IMG/VR virus record: IMGVR_UViG_2778261225_000004
Origin: a virus
Lineage: Duplodnaviria > Heunggongvirae > Uroviricota > Caudoviricetes
Length of the DNA stretch: 20,622 bases
Strand: one strand, 5' to 3'
Position numbers and translations under genes: made by a program. Shown here piece by piece: positions 3,011 to 18,085 of the stretch (position 1 is the stretch's first letter; every line of letters starts with the position of its first letter). Under the pieces are notes generated by a model. The model did no database searches. It was not told the DNA's origin and was given only the letters and a program-made list of their open reading frames with translations.

Positions 3011-3470
3011 CGCTTTCACCCCACGTCACATCCTGGAATACATGCGACCAGTCGCCTTCGGAAGAGGGCAGGCGGGGTTTTGGCTCAGGCAGGTGTTCTG
3101 CCTGCGGTGTGCCCTGACTGCTGCGCGTGATGCGAACGCGTTCCCGCAGGGGGAGCGTAAACAGGAGATCGGCGCTGTCATCGTCATTGATAACGGCGGA
3201 GAATTTGATGTCCTGATTACGCTCCGGATTGAGCAACAACTGTGGCTGATTTTCGGATAACCACGCCAGTAGCGGCAGCGTGAGGTCGTCCAGCTCCCCG
3301 GCGTAATCCATGACAAACATCACCATCTGATAGCGGTAAACAAACGAGGGCGTTTCTCCGGTCGTTTCAATGTTGCCGCTCTCCACGAAAATGGTGAATT
3401 TTTCCGGGTTGGCCTGACACCATCGGCATGAACGGGTCATGGCTTCACGCAGGGAATCAGTTTTCAGCAT
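3003..3470 (-). CDS. R: Tail completion protein gpR
   Basis: 155-aa ORF MLKTDSLREA..LPLLAWLSENQP matches remembered P2 gpR (155 aa, MLKPDSLRRA..VPVLAWLRENQP). ATG start. Confidence 0.85.
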   Translation of the reverse strand: MLKTDSLREAMTRSCRWCQANPEKFTIFVESGNIETTGETPSFVYRYQMVMFVMDYAGELDDLTLPLLAWLSENQPQLLLNPERNQDIKFSAVINDDDSADLLFTLPLRERVRITRSSQGTPQAEHLPEPKPRLPSSEGDWSHVFQDVTWGESDG

Positions 3471-3777
3471 GGTTGTTATCCTTGTTGTTCAGTCGTTGCA
3501 GCCTGCGCTGTTCCAGTAATTCAATGGCCCGTTTATCCGCGTTACAGGTTTCCAGTGCATCCAGAAGGCGGTCGCCCCATATACCGAGATTTCCCCATGT
3601 GGGAGTATCAGGGAAGGGGGGAGGCGTTACCGGTATGGTCAGCGTCTGTGGTATAAGCCGGACTGACGGCGCTGGCAGTGGCGCGTTCTGCGTGCCTGCG
3701 CAACCTGTCAGTAAAACGAGCGTCAGGCAAAGCGTGGGCGCATTCATCTTTTGCAATATCGTTGCGTAGCTGTTCAC
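3457..3777 (-). CDS. lysC: Outer-membrane spanin lipoprotein (LysC/Rz1-like o-spanin)
   Basis: Contains a lipoprotein signal with lipobox LLTG-C, followed by a Pro-rich mature region; partly overlaps the i-spanin gene in another frame, as P2 lysB/lysC do. GTG at 3777 has a GGAGAGG Shine-Dalgarno; an internal ATG at 3747 would give 96 aa, the P2 LysC length. Confidence 0.6.
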   Translation of the reverse strand: MNSYATILQKMNAPTLCLTLVLLTGCAGTQNAPLPAPSVRLIPQTLTIPVTPPPFPDTPTWGNLGIWGDRLLDALETCNADKRAIELLEQRRLQRLNNKDNNHAEN

Positions 3778-4015
3778 GTCTGGCCTCTCCGTCCTGATTG
3801 CGTTGCTGATTTTCCGTGCGGAGTTGTGCCAGCACCTGCTGCATATCCTGTACCCCGGCGCTGATGATATTCAGGGTGTCGACGGTACTTTTCAGGGGGC
3901 GTGCCTGCGCTTCGTTTCTGGCGTTCTCCCGGCCCAGCGACCACGACAGACGCACGGATGCTCCCCATACGGCAATCAGAAGAAAAGCGACGCCCGGAGA
4001 AGTCCATAACCTCAT
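3608..4015 (-). CDS. lysB: Inner-membrane spanin (LysB/Rz-like i-spanin)
   Basis: 135-aa ORF with an N-terminal transmembrane helix (GVAFLLIAVWGA) and a charged, coiled-coil-like periplasmic domain; ATG overlaps the endolysin stop (ATGA); position matches P2 lysB. Confidence 0.65.
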   Translation of the reverse strand: MRLWTSPGVAFLLIAVWGASVRLSWSLGRENARNEAQARPLKSTVDTLNIISAGVQDMQQVLAQLRTENQQRNQDGEARREQLRNDIAKDECAHALPDARFTDRLRRHAERATASAVSPAYTTDADHTGNASPLP

Positions 4016-11899: not shown

Positions 11900-12136
11900 T
11901 CATTACAGGATGTATATCGCTTCAAATGTGCTATATTTGGTCACATTAAGGCAGCGAAGAAGATGAACTTATCCTTATCGGTGTGACTACACGATATAGC
12001 CTCATCATTGTATGTGTATGGTAGGCGTGATAGCTTACCCCAACAGATTTGGGGGAGGTGGTTGACAACTGTAAAACCATCTCCATGTTAAAAGTAAATT
12101 AGTGATGTTTAAATGATTGAAAAAAGGAGACTAACT

Positions 12137-12181
12137 ATGACCGTACGCCGCACCTATAGCGAAGAAAACTGGGACGTTTAA
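12137..12181 (+). CDS. Leader micro-ORF (14 aa, MTVRRTYSEENWDV) with a strong Shine-Dalgarno
   Basis: AAAAAGGAG sits 8 nt before the ATG. The ORF is followed by CTCCTGTTTTTTT, which can pair with the Shine-Dalgarno region, then by a terminator hairpin. Not on the track because it is below the length cut-off. Confidence 0.25.
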   Translation: MTVRRTYSEENWDV

Positions 12182-12211
12182 CTCCTGTTTTTTTAGAGTA
12201 GTTTCAGTAGA

Positions 12212-12236
12212 ATGGGGGCTTTGGCTCCCATTTTTT
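12212..12236 (+). terminator. Intrinsic terminator-like hairpin (ATGGGGGC-TTTG-GCTCCCAT plus T5) 14 nt upstream of the 198-aa gene start
   Basis: 8-bp stem (one G-U pair), 4-nt loop and a T-run, read from the sequence; its position between a leader ORF and the downstream gene suggests an attenuator. Confidence 0.45.
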
Positions 12237-12249
12237 ATGGTTAAATACA

Positions 12250-12846
12250 ATGGATTTAGTTCTTTCTGCCCTTAGTTACATAGGGAAAATTTTTTCCAGT
12301 ATTTGGGAATCCAGCCCTACGTTTTATCCAGGTGCTGCGGGTGCGCTTATTGCAGTGATTAGCATACGAAATCAGAGAAAGACATCGCGCGAAAAAAACT
12401 CATTGGATTTTGAGGCTGCATATAAACGTAACAAGGACATAGTTGATGCGTGGTCAGAAGTGTTACGCATTCATAAGGATCGCCATAATTTTCCGATCGC
12501 TGATTGGGGAAAAGAAGAATATTCTCAAACAGATGGAGCAAAAGCATTAAAACTCATTTTTAATGAGTGGGAGCGTTGTGCTAATGCCGTGAATAACGGT
12601 TTGTATGATGAGCGGTATCTATATCGTGTTTATGGTTCTACCTTAATCTTTCTTGATGTCCATTTTGAACCTTATATGGAGGAGTGCCGCAAGCGTAATC
12701 CTAGGTTTTACCGTAACTTAAAATGTCTTGCTCTCCGATGGCGTGTTAGGCGAGCGTATGAAGATCAGGAAAACGATAGTAGGGAATACAAAAAACTGCT
12801 CAATGAGGCTAAGCGATTGGTAGACAAATTGCATACCAAATTCTGA
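12250..12846 (+). CDS. Hypothetical protein, 198 aa, single N-terminal transmembrane anchor plus a charged soluble domain; cargo gene at the P2 tin/old-equivalent position
   Basis: Clean ORF in an AT-rich island (visibly lower GC than the flanking phage genes). The N-terminus (FYPGAAGALIAVISI) is hydrophobic; the rest is Lys/Arg/Glu/Tyr-rich. It has its own terminator and is convergent to parR. No family was recognised from memory. Confidence 0.75.
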   Translation: MDLVLSALSYIGKIFSSIWESSPTFYPGAAGALIAVISIRNQRKTSREKNSLDFEAAYKRNKDIVDAWSEVLRIHKDRHNFPIADWGKEEYSQTDGAKALKLIFNEWERCANAVNNGLYDERYLYRVYGSTLIFLDVHFEPYMEECRKRNPRFYRNLKCLALRWRVRRAYEDQENDSREYKKLLNEAKRLVDKLHTKF

Positions 12847-12884
12847 TTTTGCATGCTTTGTGCTTCATGGCTTCTTGAATGGGA

Positions 12885-12918
12885 CATCAGGGCGAGTTCG
12901 CCCTGATGTTGTGTTATT
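12885..12918 (+). terminator. Intrinsic terminator (10-bp perfect stem CATCAGGGCG/CGCCCTGATG, loop AGTT, then TTGTGTTATT)
   Basis: Read from the sequence 39 nt after the stop of the 198-aa gene; the U-tract overlaps the stop of convergent parR. Confidence 0.6.
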
Positions 12919-13225
12919 CAGGAAATAACGCCCGGATATTTCCTGCCATCTGACTGGTTATCTGTGCGGTTGGTACTGGCTGTGACATGGGGCGTTCGGT
13001 CCTGGTTTGCGTCACTGATAACGCCTCATCGTCAGCCCATGCAGCCAGTCGGTAAGCCTCTGCCGGATTCATTTTCAGAAGTGCCAGCCCGGCCAGAAAA
13101 GCCACGCGTTGGCCGCTTTTGCGGGCTTCTGGTGTAAGGCTGTCCAGCCAGGCGCATGCATCGCCTTCGTTCTTGACGGCGGCGGGCTTCAGATAGAAAC
13201 TTATCCGTCTGGTTGGTGTCGTCAT
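12914..13225 (-). CDS. parR: ParR-like centromere-binding protein (type II partition adaptor)
   Basis: Internal ATG of track ORF 12914..13360, 5 nt downstream of the parM stop. The N-terminus RRISFYLKP..AWLDSLTPEARKSGQRVAFLAGLALL and the C-terminal IRALFPE resemble remembered plasmid R1 ParR (RTIAFKLNP..LTAGLALY..LRSLFPKE). Confidence 0.7.
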   Translation of the reverse strand: MTTPTRRISFYLKPAAVKNEGDACAWLDSLTPEARKSGQRVAFLAGLALLKMNPAEAYRLAAWADDEALSVTQTRTERPMSQPVPTAQITSQMAGNIRALFPE

Positions 13226-13229
13226 TGGT

Positions 13230-14189
13230 TTACTCCTTGTCCATTGCGTACAGCCCATTAACCAGAGCAAACTGTGGCACCCCGTCCGTGATGAAAGTCG
13301 CATTAACTCCGCAGGCTTCGCGGATAGCGGGTGCCACAATCTCCGCCCCGCCACCGACAACCATCACCCGCCCGTAACCCGAAAAAACCGCCAGCGCGCG
13401 GATCACGCGTTGTTTCAGTGTTTCTTCCTTTTCACGAATAACCGCCATCAGGCTGGCGTAATGCGCGTCATTGTGGATGTGCTGGCGCAGCCAGGCTTCA
13501 TCATGGCGATGTTCGATAATGGTATTGGCGATGTGGTGACTGGTACGCATACCGTTAGTGGCCATCACCGACAGTACGGCATCGGCCATCAGGGAAACGC
13601 CTACGTGTGGATCGCAAAACATCTGGCTGATACCTGCCAGTTGCCCCTGAACCTTTGCCACATCCAGCGTGGTTCCGCCCAAATCCACAATCAGCAGGGA
13701 TTCAAACGGACTCATGTCAGCCAGTGCCTTAAAGCCAGCCGGAATGGATTCAGGCATAACCCGTACGTTACGGATAGTGAATGCTTCGCCGTTCTGGTAC
13801 TCCACCGGGCGCATGACGTTCGCTTTTTTGCGGTTGATGTTGGCCATGTCCGGCTGTGCGTTTGTGTCGAAATATTCGCTCAGTGGCAGGGTGACAACCA
13901 CATCCACTTCCTGTGGTGTGATGCCTGATTTGACCAGCGCGTGGTGAATGGCGATTACATTCACATCGCTGTACTGGTATTGCGTGTCGGTCGTCTGGAC
14001 AAAGCGATCGCTGACCGGATCAAAACCATAGCGCACGCCATCAAGCATGTAGTTCGCGGGCTGCGTGCCACCGAACGGCGCAGACCATTCCGACTTGAAG
14101 CTGTTCGGGCTGATGGCGTTGCGGCGTTCGCCGTTCTCAGTCCATGCCAGCTTGATGTTGGTGGAGCCGTCGTCGATACAAATTTTCAT
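13230..14189 (-). CDS. parM: ParM/StbA-like actin-like segregation ATPase
   Basis: 319-aa ORF with actin-fold motifs collinear with remembered R1 ParM: CIDDGSTNIKLAW, YSDVNVIAIHHAL, VMPESIPAG, LLIVDLGGTTLDV, GVSL, VMVVGGGAE and a C-terminal LVNGLY. Confidence 0.85.
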   Translation of the reverse strand: MKICIDDGSTNIKLAWTENGERRNAISPNSFKSEWSAPFGGTQPANYMLDGVRYGFDPVSDRFVQTTDTQYQYSDVNVIAIHHALVKSGITPQEVDVVVTLPLSEYFDTNAQPDMANINRKKANVMRPVEYQNGEAFTIRNVRVMPESIPAGFKALADMSPFESLLIVDLGGTTLDVAKVQGQLAGISQMFCDPHVGVSLMADAVLSVMATNGMRTSHHIANTIIEHRHDEAWLRQHIHNDAHYASLMAVIREKEETLKQRVIRALAVFSGYGRVMVVGGGAEIVAPAIREACGVNATFITDGVPQFALVNGLYAMDKE

Positions 14190-14225
14190 GTAGCTTTTCC
14201 TTATGTTGATTAATTAATCGGTTAC

Positions 14226-14260
14226 AGGATTTTTAAATCCCGCTTTTGCCTGTTTTGTGC
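14226..14260. repeat. Repeat module A (hairpin GGATTT..AAATCC followed by CGCTTTTGCCTGTTTTGTG) in the parM upstream region
   Basis: Read from the sequence; similar in composition to module B 74 bp away; lies in the 76-bp gap between the A stop and the parM start. Confidence 0.3.
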
Positions 14261-14265
14261 GCGCT

Positions 14266-17088
14266 TCATATATCGCGGCGTGTTTTTTGCTCATTTACGG
14301 GATTTGTGAGTCCCGTTTCTGTCTGTTTTTTGTTTCCACTGGTCAGGCTACCCCGCAGCAGGTCTGCTTTGCGGTGGGCGCGTTCAGTGGTTTCACTGAT
14401 TCTCTGTGCGTGCTCTGCGTCACGGATGGCGCGCAGCATGTCAGAAAGCACGGTAACGGGGGTTTTCATGGTGTTCTGGTCCTGCTGAAGTGTGGATGCC
14501 AGACGTGCGGCGGCTTCGGGGTCTGATGCCCCCAGTTGTTCCAGATAGCTGGCGACCGGGTTATGGCGGATCTCTGTGCTGCTTACGCCGTGATTACGGC
14601 TCAGGCGCTGCCAGAGCTGCGTGATTCGGCTGTCCGGGCGGGTATCCGGTTTGCGTACAATTTCAAATCCCTGCGGTGCAATGATGCTGCCGTCAACGTA
14701 CAGGCTGCCGCCCCGTAACAGGTGCTGCATCTGCTGTTCACCGATATGCAGGCCGAGAGATTCGGCAGATTCCCGCCATTCTTTAGCGAGTAATTCGTGG
14801 TTATCAGGCAAAGGCCGCTGCTGTTTGCGGCTCTGTGTCCAGCTCTGCATTTCATCACTGCTGTTTTTTGCCTGTTTGTCACGAAGCGAACGCATCAGCG
14901 CCCGGCGTTCGTGCCGTTTCAGTGAGCGCATCCATTCGTTCACTTCAACGCCATCAGGGAGCTGCGGCCACGGTGCTGGCCGTTCTTCCGGCTGTTCTGT
15001 CCCGTTGTTGTTCGTTTCCTGTACACGGGGACAGTTATTGCCACGAGTCCAAGGGGCGGCAGGGCCGCCCTGAAGGTCAAAACCATTTTCGCGGGCGCTG
15101 TCTTCCGCTTCCGGTTTGCGTCTTACCAGCTTCCAGTTATCCGGATGCGTGCACACACGGGAGGATTCCCCGATGAGTGGTGACCAGATCCCGTAAATCT
15201 GTACGCTCTGTTCGCCGTAATCGTTCAGCTCATCGGCGAGGTCGTAGGCGGTGCGAATCAGGTAGTCTTTGCGTGGAACAAGTACGCCGCCCTGTTTCTC
15301 TATGTAGGTGGCAAAACATCCTGCATCAGCGGCAGCGAGTACCGCATCCATTGCGTCATCCTTCAGCCGTTGCGGGCCTTCCGGGTTGCGTGCCATCTGG
15401 CTGGCAAGGCGGCGGAGTTCACGCCACACCTGACGGGAGGGGATGCCAAAGAACTGGAACTGGCGGACCCGGTGAAGGCGTGCCCAACCGATGGCGCGCT
15501 CCACGCTCTCGGCCATTGATTTTCCGGTTTCGTGGTCAACGCGTGGTTTGCCTGTTTTCGGGTCGATGCCATCCACGGCGCGGCTGTCCAGGTTTTTTCC
15601 GATGTAGGTGGCGATGTAGCTGGTTGGCGTGCCTTTTGAGCCGTCGACATACTCCGCCTTAAAGCGCGGAGTAATATCATCGCCCAGCTCGTGACGATCT
15701 TCCTGAATGGCAATATCGCGGGTGTGGGACACAATGGTGTCGATTTCTTCCGGATGAGCAAAGACCATCATATGCCAGTGCACGGTGCCGTCATGGTGAG
15801 GCTCCACCGTGCGGATGCCATACCAGCGAAGACCGTCGCGGTTCAGTTTCTTGCGGACCGCCGCAAAAAACGTGTTAACCAGGTAATCGCTGGAGTCGCG
15901 CATGGTGGCCCCGTTCCATTTGGGATTCGGATGACCGTTCTCTGTTGTGGCGTGGTATTTTGACGGGCAGGTGACAGTCAGAAACACCGCTTTGTCGCCA
16001 CGGGCTTCGGCCAGAAGTTCCAGCCCCTTCATGGTGGCCATCATTTCTGCCTTACGGTGAACCGGGTTACTTACTCCCGCGTAATACACCGTCTCGAGAT
16101 CAATCGTGAACCCGTCTTCATTTTCCAGCATGAAACTTTTCAGGAAATCGCGTGTTTTCTCGCGCTGTGCGCGAAACTCGCTTAACGCGTCCTGGCTCAG
16201 ATAGGGTGATGTTTTTCTGGAAACCAGACAGGCGGCGCGGAGTTGTTCTTCTCTCCACTCGCAACGTAACAGCCACAGTTTGCGTTTCCACCATTCTGCA
16301 CAGGTCAGGCGAAGGATTGCGCCCGGCAGCAGCTCCGTGTCCGGTTCGTTCCTCCGGTCTTTGTCTGTTGTAAGTGCGTCATAATGTGGAGGCATGGCGT
16401 GCAGGTGTAACGCCATGCGGGCCAGCATCTGATACGCCTTCAGCGTTACATCCATGGTCAGTTCGCCATCGGTCGCGCCAAAGCCATCGCAGAGTTTTTC
16501 GAAGGTGCTGCTGAACATCGCCGCCGTCATGGTGGCCAGTGTCTGTATCTGGTGTTTGTTGAGCTGCGGCAGGTAAAGCAAATCGTCCAGGCGTTCGCGT
16601 CCGGCAAGGGAGCGATAACCCTGTGTCAGCCAGCGGTGATCGGTGCGCTCCAGACGTTCGAATATTTTGCGCAGGTTTCCGCGCGCGTAGCGTTCAGCCT
16701 GCCAGTTCTTTTTGCCTTTCTGACGATCGGCTTCCTGTTTTTTGCGCAGGAAGGAGAGGTGGCGAATAAGCGGATCGCGCAGATAGGACGGCAGCAGGCG
16801 CAGCGAGGCCATGGCTTCATCCACCGCGCCGCGTGCCTGTTTTCTGGCATCTCCTGCCAGTGTGATGGTTTTGTCCTGTTTTTCCTGTGCGTCCAGGCTT
16901 TTATTAATCAGGTTGCCCAGCGGCGTTGCGGAGAACGCCGCATCAGCCATTTCCTGGCGGCGCTCGTTCTCTACCCGGTAGGCATCCAGCCAGGAGGAAA
17001 GCGCGGATTCAGGAGCGGGGATCCCCGTTCCTTCACGCCCCACTGCGTGGCGCGGTTGTTGCCAGTCCCTGATGTACTCTGCCGTCAT
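14266..17088 (-). CDS. A: Replication initiation protein gpA (rolling-circle replication endonuclease) with an extended C-terminus
   Basis: 940-aa ORF at the P2 gene A position (downstream of the early operon, next to the cos-proximal cargo region). The size and a VHWHMMVF-type motif fit the P2 gpA family; about 180 aa longer than remembered P2 gpA (761 aa). Confidence 0.88.
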   Translation of the reverse strand: MTAEYIRDWQQPRHAVGREGTGIPAPESALSSWLDAYRVENERRQEMADAAFSATPLGNLINKSLDAQEKQDKTITLAGDARKQARGAVDEAMASLRLLPSYLRDPLIRHLSFLRKKQEADRQKGKKNWQAERYARGNLRKIFERLERTDHRWLTQGYRSLAGRERLDDLLYLPQLNKHQIQTLATMTAAMFSSTFEKLCDGFGATDGELTMDVTLKAYQMLARMALHLHAMPPHYDALTTDKDRRNEPDTELLPGAILRLTCAEWWKRKLWLLRCEWREEQLRAACLVSRKTSPYLSQDALSEFRAQREKTRDFLKSFMLENEDGFTIDLETVYYAGVSNPVHRKAEMMATMKGLELLAEARGDKAVFLTVTCPSKYHATTENGHPNPKWNGATMRDSSDYLVNTFFAAVRKKLNRDGLRWYGIRTVEPHHDGTVHWHMMVFAHPEEIDTIVSHTRDIAIQEDRHELGDDITPRFKAEYVDGSKGTPTSYIATYIGKNLDSRAVDGIDPKTGKPRVDHETGKSMAESVERAIGWARLHRVRQFQFFGIPSRQVWRELRRLASQMARNPEGPQRLKDDAMDAVLAAADAGCFATYIEKQGGVLVPRKDYLIRTAYDLADELNDYGEQSVQIYGIWSPLIGESSRVCTHPDNWKLVRRKPEAEDSARENGFDLQGGPAAPWTRGNNCPRVQETNNNGTEQPEERPAPWPQLPDGVEVNEWMRSLKRHERRALMRSLRDKQAKNSSDEMQSWTQSRKQQRPLPDNHELLAKEWRESAESLGLHIGEQQMQHLLRGGSLYVDGSIIAPQGFEIVRKPDTRPDSRITQLWQRLSRNHGVSSTEIRHNPVASYLEQLGASDPEAAARLASTLQQDQNTMKTPVTVLSDMLRAIRDAEHAQRISETTERAHRKADLLRGSLTSGNKKQTETGLTNPVNEQKTRRDI
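14299..14338. repeat. Repeat module B (hairpin CGGGA-TTTGTGAG-TCCCG followed by TTTCTGTCTGTTTTTTG) inside the 3' end of gene A
   Basis: Read from the sequence; a direct-repeat partner of module A. Homopolymer lengths in this stretch are uncertain. Confidence 0.3.
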
Positions 17089-17763: not shown

Positions 17764-18085
17764 GGTGTGGCCCCTTGTGTAGTAAGTTGTGAAAACTCAC
17801 CATCCAGAGCTGCGAAACTGTGGGTGGCGAGACGTACGAGGTTCGCAGTACCGGCTACACAAGAACCCGGCCCGACCGAAGTCGGCCCCGTACGCCCCGC
17901 CATAATTCTGACGCGAAAAAAACGTGGCAATACAGTACGCACAAAAAAACCGCTGGCGCGGTTGTGCGCTTGTGTAGTCAGCAGGCTGCGAAACCCGGCA
18001 CCCGTTTTGTGAGGTGCAGCGGAAATGTAACCTGACTGATTGCGGCATGGCAAGCGGTTTTTTTGTGTGTGCATGTTCTGGTTTC
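17764..18085 (-). other. 322-bp non-coding block inside the early operon with repeated CTTGTGTAG and CTGCGAA(A)C modules (two direct, one inverted) and stable hairpins; candidate structured RNA or protein-binding/ori-like element
   Basis: No credible ORF on either strand (track ORFs here are Arg/Pro-rich or low-complexity). Motif CTTGTGTAG at about 17774 and 17969 with its reverse complement at about 17855; CTGCGAAAC at about 17810 and 17986 with GTTCGCAG at 17841; GC-rich hairpin with a C-UUCG-G loop on the minus-strand transcript at about 17866..17890; CCGCTGGCGCGG preceded by A7 at about 17943..17962. Confidence 0.3.

Follow-up and report, generated by a model that had tools for sequence, protein, structure and literature searches.

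What are the two similar sequence modules that straddle the stop codon of a phage replication gene, immediately upstream of an actin-like segregation gene, in a phage that carries an integrase? The window, by which we mean the whole stretch of 20,622 nucleotides analysed here, is a P2-type prophage of the P88-like (Xuanwuvirus) kind, in which the genes A, parM and parR stand in that order. An earlier note had described each module as a hairpin followed by a T-rich tail and had taken the pair as a candidate parC or ParR operator. Judging from sequence comparisons, we consider the two modules probably to be the two-site parC (centromere) of a type II ParMR system, bound by ParR.

The repeat pair and the genes around it

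The genes and expression signals of the locus are:
12914..13225, minus strand: parR, 103-aa adaptor and presumed module binder (Pfam Plasmid_stab_B, 3.6e-24)
13230..14189, minus strand: parM, actin-like segregation ATPase (Pfam StbA_N, 1.8e-82; ParM C-terminal domain, 2.1e-68)
14196..14220, minus strand: parM ribosome-binding region AAGGAA, with the box ATTAATCAA before it
14266..17088, minus strand: gene A, P2-type replication initiator, 940 aa (Pfam Phage_GPA, 2e-131)

The A stop codon (14266-14268) and the parM ATG (14187-14189) enclose a gap of 76 bp (14190-14265). ParM matches the R1 ParM structure 1MWK with an E value of 1.4e-92, and the ParR sequence aligns with that of R1 and has the C-terminal N-x-x-x-L-F motif in common with it; a PDB sequence search with ParR returned no match, and its single-sequence AF2 model had a pLDDT of 48. 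As in a type II (ParMRC) system, a ParM ATPase is followed directly by a ParR-like gene and preceded by a repeated cis site, whose parts are:
14222..14259: module A, the proximal 38-nt unit, TTACAGGATTTTTAAATCCCGCTTTTGCCTGTTTTGTG, in the A-parM gap
14225-14242: module A palindrome, CGGGATTTAAAAATCCTG in the parM-sense direction
within module A: A-rich arm, CACAAAACAGGCAAAAG in the parM-sense direction
14260..14294: inter-module spacer of 35 bp, holding the last A codons and the stop
14266..14334, minus strand: tail of the A ORF, NKKQTETGLTNPVNEQKTRRDI up to the stop, encoded by module B and the spacer
14295..14332: module B, the distal 38-nt unit, TTACGGGATTTGTGAGTCCCGTTTCTGTCTGTTTTTTG, within the last 23 codons of the A ORF
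14298-14315: module B palindrome, CGGGACTCACAAATCCCG in the parM-sense direction

The two units are direct repeats offset by 73 bp and identical at 30 of 38 positions (79%), which makes them the top ungapped 38-mer repeat of the whole window at offsets of 20-400; in 100 dinucleotide-preserving shuffles of the window the maximum was 27/38 and none reached 30. They span -36 to -143 relative to the parM ATG. The earlier observation of two similar modules astride the A stop, one in the 76-bp gap and the other in the 3' end of A, is therefore confirmed. Its description of the module as a hairpin plus T tail holds in part: a hairpin with T-rich sequence is present on the + strand, antisense to A and parM, but the Hafnia and Plesiomonas relatives have kept neither the stems nor the T tails, and the conserved unit is a GGG-N10-CCC palindrome alone. 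In each unit this takes the form of the 18-bp palindrome CGGGAYT-N4-AATCCYG (parM-sense strand). The further copies that the note had proposed to look for were not found, either elsewhere in the window or in a complete 34.4-kb P88-like genome. The spacers after the two units are unrelated to each other in sequence, and some relatives have CATAAAAC or GAAATGT in place of the GATATAT stretch of the inter-module spacer.

Linkage to parMR and conservation among relatives

The earlier note had pointed to P2-like phages without parMR, where the same sequence at the end of A would argue against a role with ParR. In two such loci (L127 and L128), the A gene is the same as far as window position ~14378-14387, and both parMR and module B are absent. 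More generally, the A genes of P88-like prophages without parMR end differently, in LLQDKGNSEKKK or LLQSWLNNRNKE. Conversely, two loci (L050 and L129) have another ORF upstream of parM, yet both modules are kept, and where the upstream gene is replaced, the cassette homology begins at ~14330, the distal edge of module B. Across complete E. coli genomes, 1426 places carry the module region, 1442 carry parM and 1530 the A 3' region, so the modules track parM and not the end of A. They accompany parMR whichever cargo genes lie downstream, and relatives that have cargo genes without parMR have no such modules. In one locus (L019), a 73-bp deletion has removed one module and left parM and parR intact. 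These comparisons support the modules being part of the parMR cassette, not of gene A. The tail of A itself looks like a read-through extension into the cassette and not like a conserved part of A: in L050 an unrelated 155-aa ORF bears the same tail, and in Hafnia the site is translated in another frame.

The region is common. It was found in 1371 of 5426 complete E. coli genomes (~25%), inside a P2-like prophage, and the carriers include O157:H7 EDL933 and ST131 EC958; the prophage was chromosomal in 1531 of 1533 E. coli places.

Beyond the P88-like group, phage-borne parMR loci of Hafnia and Plesiomonas, whose ParM is ~62% identical, each have two GGG-N10-CCC sites, 73 bp apart in Hafnia and 72 bp apart in Plesiomonas, located ~40-60 bp before the parM ATG, with the sites starting 55 and 59 nt from it. 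The module A palindrome aligns with these sites. Stems, T tails and the remaining region have diverged, and the site geometry is retained, as is the ATTAATCAA box, which is kept in P88-like, Hafnia and Plesiomonas loci. At a background of 0.02-0.05 GGG-N10-CCC sites per 156 nt, the probability of at least two is 0.0002-0.0014 per locus. Additional Hafnia-type or Plesiomonas-type loci were sought in IMG/VR, with the result that there were none, or only an Enterobacter-clade locus; P0018 lies at a contig edge. The 16-mer ACAGGCAAAAACGGGA is shared with the Serratia clade (ParM 58%). In a set of 46 distinct P88-like sequences, variation is lowest in the palindrome arms, with a mean minor-allele count of 0.9, compared with 4.2 in the centres and 1.6 elsewhere.

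The presumed binding partner is conserved in its predicted DNA-reading region. The ParR N-terminal TRRISFYLKP shows no variation in any allele, and the N-terminus MTTPTRRISFYLKP is constant between allele classes whose overall identity is only 51%. Both allele classes adjoin the same modules and the same set of module variants; allele class and module variant were not correlated and give no evidence of covariation, which fits the invariant ParR N-terminus.

Known centromeres and the rival explanations

As summarized in PMC2241845 from Dam & Gerdes (1994), R1 parC has 5+5 direct 11-bp iterons flanking a 39-bp core with the par promoter in it, and PMC2241845 reports that R1 parC is strongly curved and U-shaped with ParR. 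Our locus resembles it in having a cis site immediately upstream of parM, a homologous ParM, a homologous ParR with an RRxIxFxLxP N-terminus and conserved C-terminal motif, and two repeat blocks that appear to share one DNA face, with A-tracts in phase; in addition, the half-site core GGG(T/A)TT resembles the ParR-binding R1 iteron AAAACCC (i.e. GGGTTTT). By 10-11 bp AA/TT periodicity, 14171-14231 comes within the top two loci of the window and R1 parC is 4th of 321 within its own locus, on a measure of periodicity and not of curvature itself. The locus differs from R1 in having two 18-bp palindromes 73 bp apart instead of ten direct iterons, in having its distal site within an ORF, in lacking a recognisable promoter, including at the spacer position where R1-type parC has one, and in residing on an integrating P2-like phage. 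An 11-bp direct-repeat family was not detected in the modules; R1 itself shows its iterons clearly. Parsing the units into R1-like 11-bp iterons, with a G/C cluster and T-tract every ~10.7 bp, was suggestive but unconvincing.

Plasmid-type Enterobacterales parMRC loci (Mixta intestinalis NZ_CP028272; Citrobacter, Dryocola and Leclercia, L098-L123) likewise have two short-repeat clusters upstream of parM, which in Mixta intestinalis are also 73 bp apart. Their ParM is 47-53% identical, and the ParR of Mixta, the sole one compared, is 28% identical. Unlike our modules, however, their clusters are made of direct 11-bp iterons (of TGGGAAAAAT or TTCTC types) that flank a clear TTGnnn-16/17-TATAAT promoter. 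The RHH ParR proteins of pSK41 and pB171 also assemble on short repeats, as dimers of dimers on 20-bp or 10-bp repeats, and their sites consist of several direct repeats in an array. One 20-bp unit for each ParR dimer of dimers is in keeping with the 18-20 bp palindrome here, although the sequences of those sites are unrelated to the modules.

The earlier note had reasoned that a promoter must lie in the gap upstream of parM and had offered an operator for ParR autoregulation. A consensus scan, which a weak or atypical promoter could escape, gave no sigma-70-like match at 12000-15000 of the window. Upstream of parM in 29 loci, a separate scan matched 0 of 7 phage-borne and 17 of 22 plasmid-type loci, under criteria by which R1 itself gives no match. 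The operator version is thus without support, while the preference of the note for a protein-binding element over a terminator stands, with a candidate parC favoured. By eye, TATATG or GATATA in the spacer and ATTAAT before the Shine-Dalgarno sequence are poor promoter candidates, and the two in the spacer are not conserved.

Other explanations have to be weighed against a centromere. Both units fold on the minus (mRNA) strand (-8.7 and -8.8 kcal/mol, z -4.1 and -3.4) and sit at a cistron boundary, as would suit hairpins in the A-parM mRNA that act as a processing site, stabilize the 3' end of the A message or modulate parM translation. We regard such RNA elements as unlikely, since in Hafnia and Plesiomonas the stems are unconserved, with only GGG/CCC closing a 10-nt loop and most folds at z -0.5 to -1.8, and arm variants in P88-like sequences never show a compensatory change. 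The two strands fold about equally, as expected for a DNA palindrome, Rfam gave no match at 13700-14900 even at E<=1, and the presence of two copies at a constant distance of 72-73 bp would be left unexplained. Folding on the other strand raises the idea of intrinsic terminators of + strand (antisense) transcription that shield A from cargo-side read-through. A terminator scan does pick module B on the + strand (an 8-bp stem, then a T-rich tail, -10.2 kcal/mol, z -3.1), and in the consensus of the family each palindrome forms a perfect 8-bp stem with T-rich sequence after it. Yet the module A hairpin is weak on the + strand of this window (-4.3 kcal/mol, z -0.9), and in Hafnia the A-rich arm lies on the opposite side of the palindrome, leaving a hairpin followed by a T-tract on neither strand. 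No + strand unit ends here; the sole nearby + gene (12250-12846) lies 1.4 kb away behind a 12-bp hairpin, and the modules go with parMR irrespective of the cargo. Terminators are therefore quite improbable.

The coincidence of the cassette boundary with the distal edge of module B, the peptide that module A gives in the A frame, which is similar to the tail, and the recombination between units implied by the L019 deletion would all suit a functionless scar, i.e. a local duplication or recombination junction that dates from the insertion of the par cassette downstream of A. A simple tandem duplication does not account for the unrelated spacers after the units; moreover, the two-site geometry survives at 62% ParM identity with diverged flanks, and the arms are better conserved than the centres, making a scar very unlikely. 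No more credible are binding sites of another protein (A, Cox, the C repressor or IHF) or an accessory replication-origin element, which the proximity of gene A and the location of the P2 ori inside A might suggest. The homologue of the A-protein nick site (P2 GCGCCTCGG/AGTCCTGTCAA) lies at 15031-15060 inside A, ~700 bp from the modules, and the modules were rejected as a P2-type ori. At 15031-15060, P2 GCCGCGCCTCGGAGTCCTGTCAATAACTGT aligns with GCCGCCCCTTGGACTCGTGGCAATAACTGT of the window by way of the rep_origin feature of the P2 record and a protein alignment; a search for a P2 nick sequence gave no match in the window at <=3 mismatches. A genes without parMR lack the modules, which argues that A has no need of them, and no extra copies occur near the C/cox control region or elsewhere in the genome.

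Several observations also speak against a centromere. There are two clear sites only, and no recognisable promoter between the repeats; the integrase and the chromosomal location make the need for a centromere not obvious. Loss of one module is found beside an intact parM and parR in L019, the similarity of the units could reflect gene conversion and not selection, and the Serratia/Enterobacter clade has a different layout with one long inverted repeat.

A proposed mechanism and its meaning

Taking the modules as the centromere, we propose the following mechanism. Each 18-bp palindrome, made up of two inverted CGGGATT-type half-sites (GGG-N10-CCC), would be bound by ParR, probably a dimer of dimers that would contact the DNA with its N-terminal ribbon-helix-helix. 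Since 73 bp corresponds to ~7 helical turns, both sites would be on the same DNA face, and the helically phased A/T tracts may allow the ParR-DNA complex to bend into a compact structure that captures the ends of ParM filaments, as in R1 parC. The cassette occupies the 3' end of the early operon (Pe: cox...A). Given this position and the lack of a recognisable promoter, we infer that parMR is expressed mainly by read-through during infection or induction; if so, the centromere would work on phage circles that have been excised and are replicating, not on the integrated prophage.

The best precedent for an integrating phage carrying such a system is AlpAC/alpS of the Corynebacterium glutamicum prophage CGP3, in which an actin-like filament, a DNA-binding adaptor and operon-adjacent repeats are combined; AlpAC is switched on soon after prophage induction, and excised CGP3 DNA depends on it to be replicated and positioned efficiently (PMC4446434, PMC5539076). 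The proteins are unrelated in sequence to those studied here, the host of CGP3 is Gram-positive, and binding to alpS was shown experimentally, whereas ours is predicted from sequence. We offer, as a tentative and rather speculative idea, that the cassette is a DNA-positioning machine for the lytic cycle of an integrating P2-type phage and not a plasmid-maintenance device. A promoter-less, two-palindrome centromere would here be fused to the 3' end of the replication-initiator operon, so that ParR, ParM and centromere activity would arise only once the early operon fires. Lysogeny would be spared an active centromere that could disturb the host chromosome, and excised genomes replicating by rolling circle might be moved or separated, as AlpAC does for CGP3.

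In the literature searched, we found no paper on P88/Xuanwuvirus parMRC or describing the repeat pair, and none on the role of an actin-like segregation system in an integrating phage; the P88 genome paper does not mention partition genes, and a paper on genome-encoded ParMs does not mention phages. The defined candidate cis site provides a direct handle on that role. If it is a centromere, it would add a minimal, palindromic and promoter-less layout to the range of type II centromeres, and an example whose sequence is translated as the tail of whatever ORF precedes it.

The repeat pair upstream of parM

The window shares 95-98% identity with Escherichia phage P88 and further Xuanwuvirus (Peduoviridae) genomes. 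On its minus strand A, parM and parR are consecutive, and since the integrase, C repressor and cox of P88 are arranged as usual in P2, the early operon has these three genes at its 3' end. The ParM encoded here matches the R1 ParM structures (E 1.4e-92).

14266-17088, minus strand: gene A, replication initiator (940 aa; Phage_GPA, 2e-131)
13230-14189, minus strand: parM (StbA_N, 1.8e-82; ParM C-terminal domain, 2.1e-68)
12914-13225, minus strand: parR (103 aa; Plasmid_stab_B, 3.6e-24)
17820-17907 and 17943-18017, minus strand: C4 antisense RNA and isrK Hfq-binding RNA of the early region (Rfam, 83 and 64 bits, both above the gathering score)

Upstream of parM, a proximal unit (module A, 14222-14259) and a distal unit (module B, 14295-14332) form a 38-nt direct repeat with 79% identity and an offset of 73 bp. 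Its 30/38 match is the top short-range repeat of the whole window and exceeds the highest score, 27, among 100 dinucleotide-preserving shuffles; the two similar modules reported in the earlier note are therefore real, and their geometry, with module A in a 76-bp gap and module B within the end of A, was correctly described. Each unit contains an 18-bp palindrome, CGGGAYT-N4-AATCCYG in the parM sense (14225-14242 and 14298-14315). The search for more copies suggested there found the palindrome at these two sites only, with none elsewhere in the window or in one complete P88-like genome.

Of 5426 complete E. coli genomes, 1371 carry a 601-bp stretch around the modules, at 1531 chromosomal and 2 plasmid places. 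The record NZ_CP148288.1, annotated as a circular "plasmid" of E. coli, is a complete P88-like genome of 34.4 kb that includes an integrase; it may represent an episomal form or DNA of induced phage caught by assembly. At 12883-12910, between the convergent parR and a DUF4760 cargo gene (12250-12846, plus strand), lies a perfect 12-bp stem with no U tract beside it on either strand; it could serve as a bidirectional stop or mark a recombination boundary of the cargo slot.

Linkage of the modules: A versus parMR

Comparison of P88-like prophage sequences favors assigning the modules to the par cassette and not to gene A. In two prophages without parMR (L127 and L128), A matches the window down to ~14378-14387 and then ends in ...LLQDKGNSEKKK or ...LLQSWLNNRNKE, followed by unrelated cargo genes; module B is absent from both A 3' ends, where its presence had been set beforehand as a refutation of the earlier proposal. 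In two others (L050 and L129), the A protein has 871 aa and a separate, unrelated 155-aa CxxC ORF in front of parM has the window-type tail ...KQTKTGFTNPVNEQKTRSDI; homology with the window restarts exactly where module B has its distal edge (~14330). In complete E. coli genomes, 1426 places carry the module region and 1442 the parM 5' half, against 1530 for the A 3' region. Taken together, these observations suggest that the last ~22 codons of A in the window are read-through into the par cassette.

In the parMR-less loci (L127 1-2765; L128 219-2726), other cargo occupies the slot that follows A, the tin/old position in P2: an AAA ATPase and an S8 peptidase in one, three hypothetical proteins in the other. 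The 155-aa ORF, with its CxxC...CxxC motifs, runs through module B (L050 3457-3924; L129 ~3267-3730), and the C-terminal region of the 871-aa A differs.

Variation and conservation of the two sites

Variability was counted over 46 distinct P88-group sequences, with ten arm and eight central positions per palindrome. The mean minor-allele count was lowest in the arms (0.9) and highest in the centers (4.2), with 1.6 at other positions. Arm variants (CAGGA, TCCTG, GGGACT, AACCCCG and others) are never compensated in the opposite arm, which argues against selection for base pairing. In the E. coli genomes, region 14190-14335 has diverged further than the genes on either side: identity there is 90-95% in 703 of 1294 records, and in parM and the 3' part of A it is 95-99% in almost all.

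Outside the P88 group, the ParM proteins nearest to that of the window (62%, 58% and 54% identity) are likewise encoded in P2-like prophages, with A on one side and the portal gene on the other. The Hafnia locus has two sites, GGGATTGAGGAAACCC and GGGTTCATTAAATCCC, with starts 73 bp apart; the Plesiomonas locus has GGGACAACAAAAACCC and GGGACAACACTAACCC, with starts separated by 72 bp. The proximal site of each locus starts 55-59 nt before the parM ATG, precedes a common ATTAATCAA box and aligns with the proximal palindrome of the window; the remainder of the upstream region has diverged. Given a GGG-N10-CCC background of 0.02-0.05 per 156 nt, the probability of two arising by chance in the region is 0.0002-0.0014 per locus. 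Because the Hafnia site is read in a different frame, an encoded peptide does not explain the conservation. The Serratia/Enterobacter clade has a single long inverted repeat with GGGAAC ends in place of two sites, and has the 16-mer ACAGGCAAAAACGGGA in common with the P88 consensus.

A putative two-site parC

Based on these comparisons, we propose that the modules probably constitute a two-site, palindromic parC for the phage ParR. The parC of R1 has 5+5 direct 11-bp iterons (AAAACCC-like) flanking a 39-bp promoter core; its DNA shows strong curvature, and the complex with ParR is U-shaped (PMC2241845). Read on the complementary strand, the R1 iteron is similar to the P88 half-site, (C)GGGATT(T). 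Only one other place in the window has AA/TT helical periodicity as strong as that at 14171-14231; R1 parC is likewise among the strongest places within its own locus. This other place, 12091-12141, is intergenic between the portal gene and a cargo gene, presumably where cos lies. In plasmid-type relatives, iteron clusters surround clear promoters, with a sigma-70-like match in 17 of 22 loci that usually lies 90-117 nt ahead of parM. The 7 phage-borne loci gave no such match; R1 itself gave none under the same criteria. An operator at a promoter, as the earlier note had considered, is thus unsupported. Expression of parMR would come by read-through from the early operon.

The modules were first described as "hairpin plus T tail." Readings as a terminator or an RNA hairpin are weakened by the linkage of the modules to parMR and because relatives have lost the stems and tails: The Hafnia and Plesiomonas stems are broken, their 10-nt loop being closed by GGG/CCC only (most z-scores -0.5 to -1.8), and the A-rich arm of Hafnia lies on the opposite side of the palindrome, so that hairpin and tail are not a conserved unit. 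No Rfam family matched the module region. The direct repeat is also unlikely to be the scar of a duplication, since the two-site geometry is kept at 62% ParM identity. As for the P2 ori nick site, its homologue lies at 15031-15060, outside the modules.

Ribbon-helix-helix proteins read DNA with their N-terminal strand. The parR of P88-like prophages is mosaic: The first ~18 residues (MTTPTRRISFYLKP...) are invariant up to a break near 13171. The remainder, in which the linker is hypervariable and a C-terminal NIxxLFPE is conserved, exists as at least two allele classes with mutual identity of only ~51%. The same module variants adjoin both classes. Diversifying selection, acting on the pairing of ParR with ParM or on incompatibility, could account for this mosaicism.

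Our literature search found no paper on the par locus in P88-like phages. As to a role of par in an integrating phage, AlpAC/alpS of prophage CGP3 offers the best precedent; it positions the excised phage DNA and promotes its replication (PMC4446434, PMC5539076). In the virus record L019 (IMGVR_UViG_2657245439_000011), a natural 73-bp deletion between the modules, upstream of parM at 4001, has left a single hybrid module. Both par genes, parM and parR, remain intact; A terminates in ...KNPVTD, its stop being the TAA within GATTAATTAA. L019 is a natural, ready-made single-site variant.
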